Shown here: positions 3,086 through 54,083 of the stretch, one piece after another | How positions within the stretch are numbered: the stretch's first letter is position 1 | How the letters are laid out: each line of letters begins with the position of its first letter | Source: Escherichia coli | GTDB taxonomy: Bacteria > Pseudomonadota > Gammaproteobacteria > Enterobacterales > Enterobacteriaceae | Strand: one strand, 5' to 3' | Assembly (NCBI RefSeq): GCF_016903815.1 | Contig: NZ_CP069973.1 | DNA: 64,000 bases | Made by a program: the position numbers and the translations under genes | Notes under the pieces: model-generated | Database searches by the model: none | The model's input: the letters and a program-made list of their open reading frames with translations, nothing else | Told to the model about the DNA's origin: nothing

Positions 3086-4159
3086 GTGGGGCAGCGAATA
3101 CCTGTAACGCTTGGTAATATTGCGCCGTTGTCGCTAAGGCCGTTCCAGCCTGGACGAATAGCTCTGGTGTGCGAAGGCGGCGGACAGCGTGGAATTTTCA
3201 CGGCTGGCGTGCTGGATGAGTTTATGCGCGCGCAGTTTAATCCTTTCGATCTTTATCTCGGCACATCTGCCGGGGCGCAGAACCTCTCGGCGTATATCTG
3301 CAATCAGCCCGGTTACGCGCGCAAAGTCATCATGCGCTATACCACAAAACGCGAATTTTTCGATCCATTGCGCTTTGTCCGTGGAGGAAATCTTATCGAT
3401 CTCGACTGGCTGGTGGAGGCCACTGCAAGCCAGATGCCGTTGCAAATGGATACCGCCGCGCGGTTGTTTGACAGCGGCAAATCGTTTTATATGTGCGCCT
3501 GTCGTCAGGATGACTATGCGCCGAATTACTTTTTACCAACCAAACAAAACTGGCTGGATGTGATTCGCGCCTCCAGTGCGATACCTGGCTTTTATCGTAG
3601 CGGAGTGTCGCTGGAAGGCATTAACTACCTGGATGGCGGGATCAGTGATGCGATTCCGGTTAAAGAGGCGGCAAGGCAGGGAGCAAAAACCTTGGTCGTC
3701 ATCCGCACCGTGCCGTCGCAAATGTACTACACGCCGCAGTGGTTCAAACGCATGGAACGCTGGCTGGGTGACAGTAGCCTGCAGCCGCTGGTCAATCTGG
3801 TGCAGCATCATGAAACCAGCTATCGTGACATTCAGCAATTTATTGAGAAACCACCGGGCAAACTGCGGATATTCGAAATTTATCCGCCGAAGCCATTGCA
3901 TAGTATCGCGCTTGGCAGTCGGATTCCGGCGCTGCGTGAAGACTATAAACTTGGGCGTTTATGCGGTCGTTATTTCCTGGCAACGGTTGGCAAGCTATTA
4001 ACTGAAAAAGCGCCGCTAACCCGCCATCTGGTGCCAGTGGTGACGCCGGAATCGATTGTCATTCCGCCTGCGCCAGTCGCCAACGATACGCTGGTTGCCG
4101 AAGTGAGCGACGCTCCGCAGGCGAACGACCCGACATTTAACAATGAGGATCTGGCTTGA
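3086..4159 (+). CDS. yjjU: patatin-like phospholipase family protein
   Basis: ORF 3050..4159; GTG 3086 gives 357 aa; patatin motifs GGGQRG and GTSAG. Confidence 0.85.
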   Translation: MGQRIPVTLGNIAPLSLRPFQPGRIALVCEGGGQRGIFTAGVLDEFMRAQFNPFDLYLGTSAGAQNLSAYICNQPGYARKVIMRYTTKREFFDPLRFVRGGNLIDLDWLVEATASQMPLQMDTAARLFDSGKSFYMCACRQDDYAPNYFLPTKQNWLDVIRASSAIPGFYRSGVSLEGINYLDGGISDAIPVKEAARQGAKTLVVIRTVPSQMYYTPQWFKRMERWLGDSSLQPLVNLVQHHETSYRDIQQFIEKPPGKLRIFEIYPPKPLHSIALGSRIPALREDYKLGRLCGRYFLATVGKLLTEKAPLTRHLVPVVTPESIVIPPAPVANDTLVAEVSDAPQANDPTFNNEDLA

Positions 4160-4935
4160 TTTGCCGTTTTATCGATACCCACTGCCATTTTGATTTCCCG
4201 CCGTTTAGCGGCGATGAAGAGGCCAGCCTGCAACGCGCAGCACAAGCGGGCGTAGGCAAGATCATTGTTCCGGCGACAGAGGCGGAAAATTTTGCCCGCG
4301 TGCAGGCGTTAGCGGAAAAATATCAACCGCTGTATGGCGCGTTAGGGTTGCATCCGGGGATGTTAGAAAAACATAGCGATGCATCGCTGGAGCAGTTACA
4401 GCAGGCGCTGGAAAGGCATCCGGCGAAGGTGGTGGCGGTGGGGGAGATCGGCCTGGATCTCTTTGGCGACGATCCGCAATTTGAGAGGCAGCAGTGGTTA
4501 CTCGACGAACAACTGAAACTGGCGAAACGCTACGATCTGCCGGTGATCCTGCATTCACGGCGCACGCACGACAAACTGGCGATGCATCTTAAACGCCACG
4601 ATTTGCCGCGTACTGGCGTGGTTCACGGTTTTTCCGGCAGCCTGCAACAGGCTGAACGGTTTGTACAGCTGGGCTACAAAATTGGCGTAGGCGGCACTAT
4701 CACCTATCCACGCGCCAGTAAAACCCGCGATGTCATCGCAAAATTACCGCTGGCATCGTTGTTGCTGGAAACCGACGCGCCGGATATGCCGCTCAACGGT
4801 TTTCAGGGGCAGCCTAACCGCCCGGAACAGGCCGCGCGGGTGTTTGCTGTGCTTTGTGAGTTACGCTTGGAACCCGCAGATGAAATTGCCGAAGTGTTGC
4901 TTAATAACACGTATACGTTGTTTAACGTGCTGTAG
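4156..4935 (+). CDS. yjjV: TatD-family metal-dependent hydrolase
   Basis: 259-aa ORF with TTG start; HxH motif (DTHCHFDF); overlaps yjjU stop by 4 nt. Confidence 0.88.
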   Translation: MICRFIDTHCHFDFPPFSGDEEASLQRAAQAGVGKIIVPATEAENFARVQALAEKYQPLYGALGLHPGMLEKHSDASLEQLQQALERHPAKVVAVGEIGLDLFGDDPQFERQQWLLDEQLKLAKRYDLPVILHSRRTHDKLAMHLKRHDLPRTGVVHGFSGSLQQAERFVQLGYKIGVGGTITYPRASKTRDVIAKLPLASLLLETDAPDMPLNGFQGQPNRPEQAARVFAVLCELRLEPADEIAEVLLNNTYTLFNVL

Positions 4936-11205: not shown

Positions 11206-11925
11206 ATGGCTACCCCACACATTAATGCAGAAATGGGCGATTTCGCTGACGTAGTTTTGATGCCAGGCGACCCGCTGCGTGCGAAGTATATTGCTGAAAC
11301 TTTCCTTGAAGATGCCCGTGAAGTGAATAACGTTCGCGGTATGCTGGGCTTCACCGGTACTTACAAAGGCCGCAAAATTTCCGTAATGGGTCACGGTATG
11401 GGTATCCCGTCCTGCTCCATCTACACCAAAGAACTGATCACCGATTTCGGCGTGAAGAAAATTATCCGCGTAGGCTCCTGTGGCGCTGTTCTGCCACACG
11501 TAAAACTGCGCGACGTCGTTATCGGTATGGGTGCCTGCACCGATTCCAAAGTTAACCGCATCCGTTTTAAAGACCATGACTTTGCCGCTATCGCTGACTT
11601 TGACATGGTGCGTAACGCAGTAGATGCAGCTAAAGCACTGGGCATTGATGCTCGCGTTGGTAACCTGTTCTCCGCTGACCTGTTCTACTCTCCGGACGGC
11701 GAAATGTTCGACGTGATGGAAAAATACGGCATCCTCGGCGTGGAAATGGAAGCGGCTGGTATCTACGGCGTCGCTGCAGAATTTGGCGCGAAAGCCCTGA
11801 CCATCTGCACCGTGTCTGACCACATCCGTACTCACGAGCAGACCACTGCCGCTGAGCGTCAGACCACCTTCAACGACATGATCAAAATCGCACTGGAATC
11901 CGTTCTGCTGGGCGATAAAGAGTAA
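11206..11925 (+). CDS. deoD: purine nucleoside phosphorylase
   Basis: 239 aa from ATG 11206 ([28 protein letters not shown]...). Confidence 0.95.
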
Positions 11926-11958
11926 TTGTGTTTTGCTGAAAGGCGATTGCCTTGTGAA

Positions 11959-11987
11959 GCCGGAGCGGGAGACTGCTCCGGCTTTTT
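11959..11987 (+). terminator. rho-independent terminator of the deo operon
   Basis: GCCGGAGCGGGAGACTGCTCCGGC hairpin followed by TTTTT. Confidence 0.8.
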
Positions 11988-12085
11988 AGTATCTATTCAT
12001 CAATAGCAACTGATTTATAGATTTACTATTATTTTTCATATGGATAGAAAATAAAATCCATTCAAGTATCTATTCACGAATCTAT

Positions 12086-12349
12086 TCATTTATGTTCAGC
12101 CGTCATCCAGGAAGGGCATATCAGCAACTCTGGTGGACAACCATAAATTTCTGCCATTTTGCTTTTGATGTTTGAGCTAAGCCGTTCCGTCTTTTCGATC
12201 TGTTTTAGAGAATTAATCGAGATACCTAACATTTTACTTACTTCAGCAAGCGATAATTTATGCCTGATACGCACGGCGGCTAGCCAGGAAATACGCTGGC
12301 TGAACATTAAATTGATAATCTCCCGTTCCTGGTTTTCCAGATCGATCAT
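12086..12349 (-). CDS. small XRE-type helix-turn-helix protein (87 aa); possibly the HTH remnant of yjjJ
   Basis: ORF with strong RBS (AGGGAAGGAAAT-ATG); HTH-like segment LSLAEVSKMLGISINSLKQIEK; 31 bp downstream of lplA on the same strand. Confidence 0.55.
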   Translation of the reverse strand: MIDLENQEREIINLMFSQRISWLAAVRIRHKLSLAEVSKMLGISINSLKQIEKTERLSSNIKSKMAEIYGCPPELLICPSWMTAEHK

Positions 12350-12380
12350 ATTTCCTTCCCTGGATATTTTAATCAGCGAG

Positions 12381-40625: not shown

Positions 40626-41912
40626 ATGAAACTCTACAATCTGAAAGATCACAATGAGCAGGTCAGCTTTGCGCAAGCCGTAACCCAGGGGTTGGGCAAA
40701 AATCAGGGGCTGTTTTTCCCGCACGACCTGCCGGAATTCAGCCTGACTGAAATTGATGAGATGCTGAAGCTGGATTTTGTCACCCGCAGTGCGAAGATCC
40801 TCTCGGCGTTTATTGGTGATGAAATCCCGCAGGAAATCCTGGAAGAGCGCGTACGCGCGGCGTTTGTCTTCCCGGCTCCGGTCGCCAATGTTGAAAGCGA
40901 TGTCGGTTGTCTGGAATTGTTCCACGGGCCAACGCTGGCATTTAAAGATTTCGGCGGTCGCTTTATGGCACAAATGCTGACCCATATTGCGGGCGATAAG
41001 CCAGTGACCATTCTGACCGCGACCTCCGGTGATACCGGAGCGGCAGTGGCTCATGCTTTCTACGGTTTGCCGAATGTGAAAGTGGTTATCCTCTATCCAC
41101 GAGGCAAAATCAGTCCACTGCAAGAAAAACTGTTCTGTACATTGGGCGGCAATATTGAAACTGTTGCCATCGACGGCGATTTCGATGCCTGTCAGGCGCT
41201 GGTGAAGCAGGCGTTTGATGATGAAGAGCTGAAAGTGGCGCTGGGGTTAAACTCGGCTAACTCGATTAACATCAGCCGTTTGCTGGCGCAGATTTGCTAC
41301 TACTTTGAAGCTATTGCGCAGCTGCCGCAGGAAGCGCGCAACCAGCTGGTTGTCTCGGTGCCAAGCGGAAACTTCGGCGATTTGACGGCGGGTCTGCTGG
41401 CGAAGTCACTCGGTCTGCCGGTGAAACGTTTTATTGCTGCGACCAACGTGAACGATACCGTGCCACGTTTCCTGCACGACGGTCAGTGGTCCCCCAAAGC
41501 GACTCAGGCGACGTTATCCAACGCGATGGACGTGAGTCAGCCGAACAACTGGCCGCGTGTGGAAGAGTTGTTCCGCCGCAAAATCTGGCAACTGAAAGAG
41601 CTGGGTTATGCAGCCGTGGATGATGAAACCACGCAACAGACAATGCGTGAGTTAAAAGAACTGGGCTACACCTCGGAGCCGCACGCTGCCGTAGCTTATC
41701 GTGCGCTGCGTGACCAGTTGAATCCAGGCGAATATGGCTTGTTCCTCGGCACCGCGCATCCGGCGAAATTTAAAGAGAGCGTGGAAGCGATTCTCGGTGA
41801 AACGTTGGATCTGCCAAAAGAGCTGGCAGAACGTGCTGATTTACCCTTGCTTTCGCATAATCTGCCCGCCGATTTTGCTGCGTTGCGTAAATTGATGATG
41901 AATCATCAGTAA
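40626..41912 (+). CDS. thrC: threonine synthase
   Basis: 428-aa ORF, MKLYNLKDHNEQVSFAQAVTQGL... Confidence 0.96.
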   Translation: MKLYNLKDHNEQVSFAQAVTQGLGKNQGLFFPHDLPEFSLTEIDEMLKLDFVTRSAKILSAFIGDEIPQEILEERVRAAFVFPAPVANVESDVGCLELFHGPTLAFKDFGGRFMAQMLTHIAGDKPVTILTATSGDTGAAVAHAFYGLPNVKVVILYPRGKISPLQEKLFCTLGGNIETVAIDGDFDACQALVKQAFDDEELKVALGLNSANSINISRLLAQICYYFEAIAQLPQEARNQLVVSVPSGNFGDLTAGLLAKSLGLPVKRFIAATNVNDTVPRFLHDGQWSPKATQATLSNAMDVSQPNNWPRVEELFRRKIWQLKELGYAAVDDETTQQTMRELKELGYTSEPHAAVAYRALRDQLNPGEYGLFLGTAHPAKFKESVEAILGETLDLPKELAERADLPLLSHNLPADFAALRKLMMNHQ

Positions 41913-41935
41913 TATCTATTCATTATCTCAATCAG

Positions 41936-52434: not shown

Positions 52435-52916
52435 CTATCTGCCGTTCAGCTAATGCCTGAGACAGATAGCCTCAAGCACCCGCCGCTATTATATCGCTCT
52501 CTTTAACCCATTCTGTTTTATCGATTCTAATCCTGAAGACGCCTCGTATTTTTATGGCGTAATTTTTTAATGATTTAATTATTTAACTTTAATTTATCTC
52601 TTCATCGCAATTATTGACGACAAGCTGGATTATTTTTGAAATATTGGCCTAACAAACATCGCCGACTGACAACAAATTAATTATTACTTTTCCTAATTAA
52701 TCCCTCAGAAATCCTGACCTTAAGCTATGATTATCAGGGCTTAGGGTCACTCGTGAGCGCTTACAGCCGTCAAAAACTCATCTCATCGCTAATGGCACAA
52801 ATCCTTCAATGGTTCGTAAAAAACGAATTATTCCTACACTATAATCTGATTTTAACGATGATTCGTGCGGGGTAAGATAGTAAAAACGATCTATTCACCT
52901 GAAAGAGAAATAAAAA

Positions 52917-54083
52917 GTGAAACATCTGCATCGATTCTTTAGCAGTGATGCCTCGGGAGGCATTATTCTTATCATTGCCGCTATCCTGGCGATGATTATG
53001 GCCAACAGCGGCGCAACCAGTGGATGGTATCACGACTTTCTGGAGACGCCGGTTCAGCTCCGGGTTGGTTCACTCGAAATCAACAAAAACATGCTGTTAT
53101 GGATAAATGACGCGCTGATGGCGGTATTTTTCCTGTTAGTCGGTCTGGAAGTTAAACGTGAACTGATGCAAGGATCGCTAGCCAGCTTACGCCAGGCTGC
53201 ATTTCCAGTTATCGCCGCTATTGGTGGGATGATTGTGCCGGCATTACTCTATCTGGCCTTTAACCATGCCGATCCGATTACCCGCGAAGGGTGGGCGATC
53301 CCGGCGGCTACTGACATTGCTTTTGCACTTGGTGTGCTGGCGCTGTTGGGAAGTCGTGTTCCGTTAGCGCTGAAGATCTTTTTGATGGCTCTGGCTATTA
53401 TCGACGATCTTGGGGCCATCATTATCATCGCATTGTTCTACACTAATGACTTATCGATGGCCTCTCTTGGTGTCGCGGCTGTAGCAATTGCGGTACTCGC
53501 GGTATTGAATCTGTGTGGTGTACGCCGCACGGGCGTCTATATTCTGGTTGGCGTGGTGTTGTGGACTGCGGTGTTGAAATCGGGGGTTCACGCAACCCTG
53601 GCGGGGGTAATTGTCGGCTTCTTTATTCCTTTGAAAGAGAAGCATGGGCGTTCTCCAGCGAAGCGACTGGAGCATGTGTTGCACCCGTGGGTGGCGTATC
53701 TGATTTTACCGCTGTTTGCATTTGCTAATGCTGGCGTTTCACTGCAAGGCGTCACGCTGGATGGCTTGACCTCCATTCTACCATTGGGGATCATCGCTGG
53801 CTTGCTGATTGGCAAACCGCTGGGGATTAGTCTGTTCTGCTGGTTGGCGCTGCGTTTGAAACTGGCGCATCTGCCTGAGGGAACGACTTATCAGCAAATT
53901 ATGGCGGTGGGGATCCTGTGCGGTATCGGTTTTACTATGTCTATCTTTATTGCCAGCCTGGCCTTTGGTAGCGTAGATCCAGAACTGATTAACTGGGCGA
54001 AACTCGGTATCCTGGTCGGTTCTATCTCTTCGGCGGTAATTGGATACAGCTGGTTACGCGTTCGTTTGCGTCCATCAGTTTGA
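52917..54083 (+). CDS. nhaA: Na+/H+ antiporter NhaA
   Basis: 388-aa ORF with GTG start, [31 protein letters not shown]... Confidence 0.96.

Follow-up and report, generated by a model that had tools for sequence, protein, structure and literature searches.

What takes the place of the toxin gene yjjJ in those Escherichia coli genomes that lack it between deoD and lplA? In K-12 MG1655, yjjJ (hipH; 1332 bp, encoding 443 amino acids) lies between these two genes on the plus strand, in the same direction as deoD, and abuts the lplA stop codon; an earlier note on the DNA studied here, made from the letters alone, had rightly placed a gene of about 1.3 kb here. In the present 64,000-bp stretch of E. 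coli (assembly GCF_016903815.1, contig NZ_CP069973.1; hereafter the window), the interval between deoD and lplA measures only 455 bp (11926-12380), and its sole sizeable open reading frame (ORF) in the program-made ORF list is an 87-codon frame with an ATG start on the minus strand (12086-12349), which we label HTH87, a name coined here. The note had described it as an XRE-type helix-turn-helix (HTH) ORF with a strong ribosome binding site, 31 bp from lplA, and both the coordinates and the domain assignment hold (Pfam HTH_3, 1.2e-6). It had offered two explanations, an HTH-only remnant of YjjJ left by deletion of the kinase domain or a different small regulator.

We found HTH87 to be an intact accessory regulator gene and not a yjjJ pseudogene. 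Sequence comparison across genera indicates that HTH87 and yjjJ/hipH are mutually exclusive, old cargos of a variable deoD–lplA slot, each attached to the same control region, R, in which a promoter-like spacer is flanked by one distal TATCTATTCA repeat and by two to three proximal ones in tandem. Our best explanation as a whole, to which we assign a probability of about 0.7, is that of a genuine antitoxin-derived gene which forms an alternative cargo of a slot with a shared R, combined with a model of HTH87 as an R-binding repressor; the part on identity and evolution is held with high confidence. The locus is composed of the following elements, in window positions.

11206-11925, plus strand: deoD, purine-nucleoside phosphorylase, the left flank (ORF list; RefSeq annotation of the identical strain 7/2)
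11956-11988, plus strand: intrinsic terminator of deoD, a GC-rich hairpin (11956-11985) followed by UUUUU (RNA fold -33.3 kcal/mol, z = -5.3)
11990-11999, plus strand: distal R-repeat TATCTATTCA, from a motif search, kept in both allele types and across genera
12000-12054, plus strand: R-region spacer with a conserved TTATTTTTCA and a -10-like TAAAAT, from the alignment of 14 R-regions; homologous to the K-12 yjjJ promoter region, strongly diverged
12055-12090, plus strand: three tandem 12-bp proximal R-repeats, AATCCATTCAAG, TATCTATTCACG and AATCTATTCATT (motif search, R-region alignment)
12092-12094, plus strand: retained yjjJ start codon ATG, the last K-12-homologous position before the swap (base-by-base junction alignment)
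12086-12349, minus strand: HTH87, XRE-type HTH protein of 87 amino acids (WP_000566150.1; ECs5344, or ECs_5344, in O157 Sakai)
12354-12360, minus strand: Shine-Dalgarno sequence GGGAAGG of HTH87, read from the minus strand, inside the 31-bp gap after lplA
12095-12381, no strand: swapped segment, 287 bp, 42% GC, standing for the 1330-bp yjjJ segment of K-12 (yjjJ 54% GC), with its right junction at the lplA stop codon
12381-13397, minus strand: lplA, lipoate-protein ligase A, the right flank and probable upstream operon partner of HTH87

HTH87 starts 31 bp past the lplA stop codon (12350-12380), and the minus strand upstream of it ends in CCAGGGAAGGAAAT-ATG, in which GGGAAGG-AAAT-ATG places a good Shine-Dalgarno sequence 4-5 nt before the start. 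The gene is a coding sequence (CDS) in RefSeq, as in every record sampled, and its product is named "transcriptional regulator" in O157 Sakai. An Rfam scan of 11800-12500 returned no RNA family. A scan for consensus promoters and terminators proposed a single, implausible promoter overlapping the start codon and failed to detect the deoD terminator, a clear one that folding then confirmed; read on the minus strand, the hairpin of this terminator has no U-tract.

Comparison with K-12 delimits the exchange. The flanks are homologous to those of the K-12 locus by blastn (deoD 98.3% and lplA 96.6% identical), and blastn together with the junction alignment showed that only window positions 12095-12381 (287 bp) are exchanged for positions 3396-4725 (1330 bp) of the K-12 locus. 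To the left of the swap, K-12 homology covers the deoD terminator, the distal TATCTATTCA, a diverged spacer and the three tandem 12-bp units, and ends exactly at the yjjJ ATG. The deletion junction that the note had proposed to look for relative to K-12 thus exists in part: it lies at the yjjJ start codon, with the upstream region and the ATG kept, but the segment behind it is swapped and holds no HTH remnant. By blastn the two swapped segments have no DNA similarity, and BLASTP gave no meaningful alignment between HTH87 and YjjJ, residues 1-110 included. A profile of the HTH87 family compared with one of seven YjjJ N-terminal domains reached 23% in hhalign over 20 columns, which is the generic HTH motif, and Pfam detects in YjjJ only HipA_C and a very weak MarR-like N-terminal signal, an XRE match being absent. 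Nor are the two genes collinear, as they lie on opposite strands and the retained yjjJ ATG, which on the minus strand is the His86 codon of HTH87, opens merely a 27-codon plus-strand frame. The identity of HTH87 as a YjjJ remnant was rejected on these grounds: the opposite strand, the nil BLASTP result, the bare HTH motif in hhalign and an HTH in YjjJ that is not XRE-type. The first explanation of the note is thereby refuted by the very comparison with the YjjJ N-terminus that it had proposed. The 27-codon ORF itself (12092-12175, plus strand, MFSRHPGRAYQQLWWTTINFCHFAFDV) is codon-aligned antisense to the 3' end of HTH87; the frame is likewise open in a cryptic Escherichia (L008), its ATG is not kept in Superficieibacter or Enterobacteriaceae UBA3516, and the ORF is probably a side effect of the antisense frame.

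K-12 YjjJ/HipH, a Ser/Thr kinase toxin of the HipA family to whose N-terminus an HTH is fused, has in common with HTH87 the slot, the upstream R-region, the repeats, the position of the ATG and a relation to toxin-antitoxin (TA) systems. HTH87 differs from it in being an unrelated protein on the opposite strand, without a kinase domain, that reads towards R and not away from it.

As to the protein itself, HTH87 belongs to the XRE family on three counts: the HTH_3 match (PF01381, residues 23-76), a five-helix lambda-repressor-like fold and XRE repressors as top fold matches. An AlphaFold2 model built on the family alignment (mean predicted local distance difference test score, pLDDT, 88.6) consists of a helix at the N-terminus (4-18), an XRE domain of five helices (22-76; helices 22-29, 34-41, 45-54, 59-69 and 73-76) and a short C-terminal tail. 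Foldseek against the PDB returned CylR2, C.BclI/C.AhdI, SinR, P22 c2, 434 Cro and the CapH N-domain at E 0.02-0.1, which is generic fold similarity. The best fold matches are small XRE repressors (CylR2, C-proteins of restriction-modification systems, the SinR N-domain, P22 c2 and 434 Cro), with template modelling (TM) scores of about 0.55-0.77 and root-mean-square deviations of 1.4-2.1 Å over 53-60 residues; compared with these, HTH87 carries one more helix at the N-terminus and, at the C-terminus, a conserved CPxWM tail. These model-based matches are consistent with HTH87 being a dimeric operator-binding repressor. A PDB sequence search with HTH87 found nothing significant, and among NCBIfam and PADLOC models there were only sub-threshold generic XRE matches, none reaching its cut-off.

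The closest kin of HTH87 outside its own family are antitoxins. Residues 10-77 match positions 54-121 of the 122-position PHROG profile phrog_7241 (3.4e-10), and the next-best HMMER relatives are proteins of 95-133 amino acids. Pasteurella phage Pmp14 and Enterobacteria phage PPyecE_EH1910 encode relatives of 122-124 amino acids directly after a gene for an 86-amino-acid toxin, that of Pmp14 being a Pfam ParE_toxin (7e-10), and two metagenomic relatives (P0102 and P0097) also follow ParE_toxin genes. When eight HTH87 orthologues were aligned as a profile with six such ParE-linked antitoxins, hhalign gave 99.5% (E = 3.5e-22), matching residues 9-77 to positions 55-123 of 125 columns. With the phrog_7241-type XRE antitoxins of toxin-first ParE/RelE modules (Pmp14 gp33, PPyecE_EH1910 gp290; 122-133 amino acids), HTH87 shares a homologous DNA-binding half (about 39% identity over 69 columns), a helix preceding the HTH and the SLLAAWR, IEK and YxC motifs. 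It differs from them in having 87 instead of 122-133 residues, the alignments showing that the N-terminal extension of about 50 residues, presumed to neutralise the toxin, is absent, and in following lplA instead of a ParE/RelE gene, at a fixed chromosomal slot attached to the R repeats. By the ORF list and the RefSeq annotation, the slot of the window holds no ParE-like ORF, and upstream of HTH87, across the 31-bp gap, stands lplA. These alignments make HTH87 the DNA-binding half of a ParE/RelE-associated antitoxin family in stand-alone form; it is not filed as a TA component because the two defining features of the antitoxins, the N-terminal segment and the toxin partner, are absent. One distant relative of 129 amino acids (P0081) is preceded by a 35-codon ORF (3147-3254 of its locus, L006) where its relatives have an 86-88-amino-acid ParE toxin gene, and this ORF may be a truncated toxin; a DUF2357/PDDEXK_7 gene adjoins the same locus.

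The suggestion of a toxin-less DNA-binding remnant hence catches one aspect, since HTH87 does look like the toxin-less DNA-binding part of a TA component, but the family is that of the ParE/RelE-associated antitoxins and not that of HipH. The proposed comparison with HipB, the 88-amino-acid XRE antitoxin of hipBA, came out negative: the two resemble each other in size, XRE-type HTH fold and being TA-associated DNA binders, whereas HTH87 does not match the NCBIfam model NF007271 at E <= 1, HipB is absent among its PDB sequence and fold neighbours, and no hipA-like gene lies next to it. On the whole, the note had made a correct observation and given it a mostly wrong interpretation.

HTH87 is also not an oddity of one strain. 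The short form of the locus occurs in 4062 of 5426 complete E. coli genomes (about 75%; at least 80% of a 1-kb probe covered), the yjjJ form in 1346, and some 18 genomes hold something else, in a collection that is biased to laboratory and clinical strains. K-12 as the norm for this slot, as the note had assumed, is therefore misleading: the short form is the majority allele. Carriers of HTH87 include O157:H7, O104:H4, O103:H2, strain B and CE10, and carriers of yjjJ include many K-12 laboratory derivatives (401 genomes at >= 99% identity), sequence type 131 (ST131) and other lineages. Damaged alleles exist as well. One E. coli locus (L003) has a 94-bp internal deletion leaving a 67-amino-acid product, another (L004) a short duplication and frameshift giving 101 amino acids, and more truncated or frameshifted protein clusters occur among the homologues, such as P0040 (93 amino acids, 12 contigs). 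Two homologues first taken for distant relatives (P0050 and P0029) were rejected as such, because they are E. coli copies at this very place that have suffered damage.

Among 5.8 billion proteins, a word-indexed search matched HTH87 only in Escherichia and Shigella. HMMER, run exhaustively over 1.84 billion cluster representatives, contributed one true relative of the same length (P0079, 44% identity), a singleton from one SRA assembly. The P0079 gene is found 64 bp past an lplA that encodes a protein with 89% identity to E. coli LplA, and the 3' end of deoD converges on it from the other side; a word-index search with P0079 as query returned only P0079 itself. Intact orthologues of 86-87 amino acids occupy the same slot in E. 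marmotae, Escherichia sp. E1130, cryptic Escherichia, Superficieibacter, Enterobacteriaceae UBA3516 and a metagenomic contig. Those outside Escherichia are 41-54% identical to HTH87 of the window, in genomes whose LplA is about 89-94% identical.

All eight HTH87 orthologues are intact at 86-87 codons. By the Nei-Gojobori method, the pairwise ratio of nonsynonymous to synonymous substitution rates (dN/dS) is 0.15-0.4 in nearly all comparisons, with outliers of 0.14, 0.60 and 0.70, and the deep comparisons (dS > 1) fall within the same range; within Escherichia the values are noisy, being based on 4-14 differences of each class. For lplA, dN/dS was 0.02-0.05 in the same comparison. A lplA dS of about 0.3 between supposed E. 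coli strains was considered as an anomaly and rejected, for the two strains (L008, SCPM-O-B-8794, and L090) are labelled E. coli and are only about 92-95% identical in the flanks, that is, cryptic-clade Escherichia. Because dN/dS remains at 0.15-0.4 even in the deep comparisons, HTH87 is coding and, on these substitution patterns, under purifying but relaxed selection. The second explanation of the note, a different small regulator in the slot, is borne out by a conserved, annotated gene that keeps this dN/dS and its 86-87 codons across genera.

To place HTH87 among the contents of the slot, one genome per species was scanned with LplA, the best 80 of 454 loci were kept and their slots were classed by tblastn; the E. 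coli type strain, E. fergusonii and S. enterica subsp. enterica are missing from what this survey returned. Among these best 80 loci, 73 slots could be scored: 50 were empty (50-110 bp), 6 held a full yjjJ, 2 a yjjJ remnant, 3 HTH87 and 12 other cargo. Empty slots include the representatives of Salmonella enterica diarizonae and arizonae, most Citrobacter, Enterobacter and Klebsiella, and E. whittamii. Full yjjJ was found in E. albertii (95%) and, at 60-69%, in one Citrobacter, Kosakonia pseudosacchari, a Pseudocitrobacter metagenome-assembled genome, a Leclercia and Silvania; HTH87 was found in a cryptic Escherichia labelled E. coli, Superficieibacter sp. and Enterobacteriaceae UBA3516. The two genes never occur together in one slot. 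In Pseudocitrobacter vendiensis (L039) the slot carries a transposase of the tyrosine type associated with repetitive extragenic palindromic (REP) sequences (NF047646, 181.7 bits against a cut-off of 80). The convergent deoD–lplA gap is a general hotspot for small insertions in Enterobacteriaceae.

R accompanies both cargos. It stands upstream of yjjJ in all six genera that carry yjjJ, and also between the deoD terminator and the HTH87 stop in cryptic Escherichia, Superficieibacter and UBA3516; in every case the TGA stop of HTH87, which in the window falls within the last proximal repeat, is formed by the first three bases of the reversed last repeat. One locus (L005) retains a single degenerate repeat copy. 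The 9-mer ATCTATTCA occurs five times in the window against 0.44 expected, three of the five in the R cluster. The tandem R block was found once, and at no place other than this slot, in 5255 of 5426 E. coli genomes (97%) of both allele types; a search of the genomes for extra copies gave none. In the alignment of 14 R-regions, a spacer signature TTATTTTTCA..GGAT.G is common to HTH-type alleles of different genera. Such cargo-specific signatures suggest that R and its cargo form two old cassette lineages and argue against recent independent swaps. Repeats and spacer core are still recognisable in lineages with saturated synonymous sites, so R is constrained even where yjjJ is missing. Between the highly conserved repeats the spacer is hypervariable: it can hardly be aligned between the two allele types of E. 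coli (window 12001-12058 against K-12 locus 3302-3360), with identical flanking repeats, and equally so between the yjjJ alleles of K-12 and E. albertii, whose proteins are 95% identical. The R-region of L008 has exactly one 12-bp proximal unit fewer than that of the window, as expected from slippage between tandem units.

Published K-12 data bear on the same region. Genomic SELEX (systematic evolution of ligands by exponential enrichment) mapped both H-NS binding and an RpoD holoenzyme site, TTTTCA-18-TCTATT, to the spacer between deoD and yjjJ (PMC3946193), and this RpoD site corresponds to the conserved TTTTCA plus the first proximal repeat. The yjjJ-lplA pair is listed as a convergent excludon (PMC12288877), hipH transcription rises with cyclic di-GMP (c-di-GMP) via its promoter region (PMC11452175), and HipH was described as monocistronic with a mode of control called unknown (PMC8262856). 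Promoter assignments within R are themselves uncertain.

HTH87 is most likely, by analogy, a small repressor co-transcribed with lplA and possibly acting on the R repeats. It would be translated from the lplA transcript; co-transcription is suggested by the 31-bp gap, by the consensus scan, which found no terminator-like site between lplA and HTH87, and by the coupling in Superficieibacter, where HTH87 begins with GTG only 7 nt past the lplA stop. By analogy with its fold neighbours it would act as a dimeric repressor, with the adjacent R repeats as the most plausible target. Since R faces the 3' end of HTH87 and lplA, binding would limit R-driven antisense transcription. The RNA polymerase site in the K-12 spacer (PMC3946193) and the excludon listing of yjjJ-lplA (PMC12288877) speak in favour of these proposed steps. 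A weak lead in this direction is that the operon promoters of related ParE antitoxins contain palindromes with ATCTTAT/ATCTAAT half-sites, loosely like the ATCTATT core of the repeats. By this analogy, binding of HTH87 to R is conceivable, and we rate it as a tentative proposal that is rather to be doubted.

Several points weigh against this explanation. The R repeats are direct, whereas inverted repeats are the usual targets of XRE dimers; the likeness of the half-sites rests on AT-rich sequence and comes without statistics; and the promoter hexamers in R are poor, with ambiguous spacing in the HTH87-type spacer. The same repeats precede yjjJ in genera without HTH87, so something else, be it the YjjJ HTH or a host factor, would have to bind there, and one host factor would be a simpler reason for the conservation of R beside either cargo than a pair of unrelated HTH domains on one operator. 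The c-di-GMP response of the hipH promoter (PMC11452175) was likewise weighed toward a host factor. In addition, constraint on HTH87 is relaxed and its alleles are disrupted in several E. coli lineages, and a literature search under ECs5344 or Z5987, or for the allele, found nothing.

These considerations lead to the strongest of the alternatives, in which a conserved host factor, for example a c-di-GMP-responsive one, controls R whatever the cargo, and HTH87 regulates something else or its own lplA-linked expression. Retention of one 9-bp motif with two unrelated cargo HTH domains across genera, the c-di-GMP response mediated by the K-12 hipH promoter region (PMC11452175) and the binding of H-NS to the spacer (PMC3946193) all point this way; yet E. 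coli genomes have the tandem R block at no other site, so that no regulon is visible at that stringency. Nor is the motif known to match an E. coli operator, those of ArgR, DeoR, CytR, IHF and others included. We regard control by a host factor as somewhat unlikely.

HTH87 might also be an orphan antitoxin-like immunity allele that represses the R promoter or neutralises a HipH- or ParE-type toxin in trans, conferring resistance to incoming toxins. That HTH87 is homologous to antitoxins and excludes hipH from one site with the same control region would fit, as would the rescue of YjjJ toxicity in trans by HipB, an XRE antitoxin unrelated to HTH87 (PMC9948734), and a control of HipH that is called unknown (PMC8262856). 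Against it, HTH87 lacks the presumed toxin-binding segment of the antitoxins and is no HipB equivalog (NF007271 unmatched, HipB absent among sequence and fold neighbours), and we consider immunity in this general form improbable. A more specific version, unlikely too if slightly less so, would have hipH and HTH87 as alternative payloads of one ancient regulatory cassette, with HTH87 binding the TATCTATTCA repeats, that is the hipH operator/promoter, as a toxin-free immunity allele that silences R. If true, this allele would block R-driven antisense transcription into lplA and repress an incoming hipH, and E. coli would be polymorphic at a single site for a toxin allele and an anti-toxin-promoter allele.

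It is very unlikely that HTH87 is a functionless, decaying relic, an antitoxin fragment left to drift on its own once its toxin was lost. Its missing antitoxin N-terminal domain and toxin partner, its relaxed constraint compared with lplA and the independent E. coli disruptions (the 94-bp deletion in L003, the duplication and frameshift in L004 and the truncated clusters) would suit such a fate; decay is opposed by the retention of 86-87 codons and of the stop position relative to R across lineages with saturated synonymous sites (dS > 1), by a dN/dS of 0.15-0.4 in all deep comparisons, and by the occurrence of the gene in 75% of the complete E. coli genomes, with a CDS annotation in each record that was sampled. 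That the ORF is the N-terminal HTH of YjjJ/HipH left after a kinase-domain deletion can practically be dismissed: the site is indeed the yjjJ site with the yjjJ 5' region and ATG in place, and yjjJ deletion remnants are known from other genera (L037, L046, L022 and L029), but the opposite strand, the failure of BLASTP, hhalign and blastn to connect the two genes beyond a bare HTH, and HTH87 orthologues in genera whose slot never shows yjjJ sequence all contradict it.

Compared with these alternatives, we retain the reading of HTH87 as an antitoxin-derived alternative cargo, and its interest lies in its being the common alternative to hipH, in its origin from an antitoxin DNA-binding domain and in the conserved, repeat-bearing control region found with both alternatives. 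Work on HipH/YjjJ as a toxin involved in persistence and genotoxicity has been confined almost wholly to K-12 and a few uropathogenic E. coli (UPEC) strains; three quarters of complete E. coli genomes are without hipH, which limits how far K-12 results can be generalised. The conserved TATCTATTCA repeats and a natural "promoter without toxin" allele offer handles on hipH regulation. For annotation, the message is that HTH87 is an already annotated, ordinary-looking and unstudied accessory regulator, and not a yjjJ pseudogene.

Genuine remnants of yjjJ do exist elsewhere. In Phytobacter diazotrophicus (L037) the R repeats are followed by a 53-codon N-terminal fragment (MSALTDLLLQGSRSVSELRQSLAISQATFSRIVSAHSEVVQFGKARATRCWKN, then stop), an HTH-only remnant with the kinase part deleted, which is what the note had envisaged for the window but occurs here in a different genus. 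Kosakonia offers a decay series from an intact yjjJ (L020) through R without the gene (L022) and a collapsed R scar of about 30 bp (L029) to R-free empty slots with REP-like sequence (L063 and L085). Other cargos of the slot, several of them hypothetical proteins, are a 229-241-amino-acid secreted protein (L033 and L056), a lipoprotein (L041), a PRK09867-family membrane protein (L072) and a 406-amino-acid secreted protein (L074); in Kluyvera georgiana (L086) it holds an ORF closely similar to the transposase ORF of P. vendiensis. Two isolated exact copies of ATCTATTCA lie off the slot on the plus strand of the window and may be due to chance, one at 41914-41922, directly past ORF 40626-41912, and the other at 52889-52897, 20 bp upstream of the ORF that starts at 52917.

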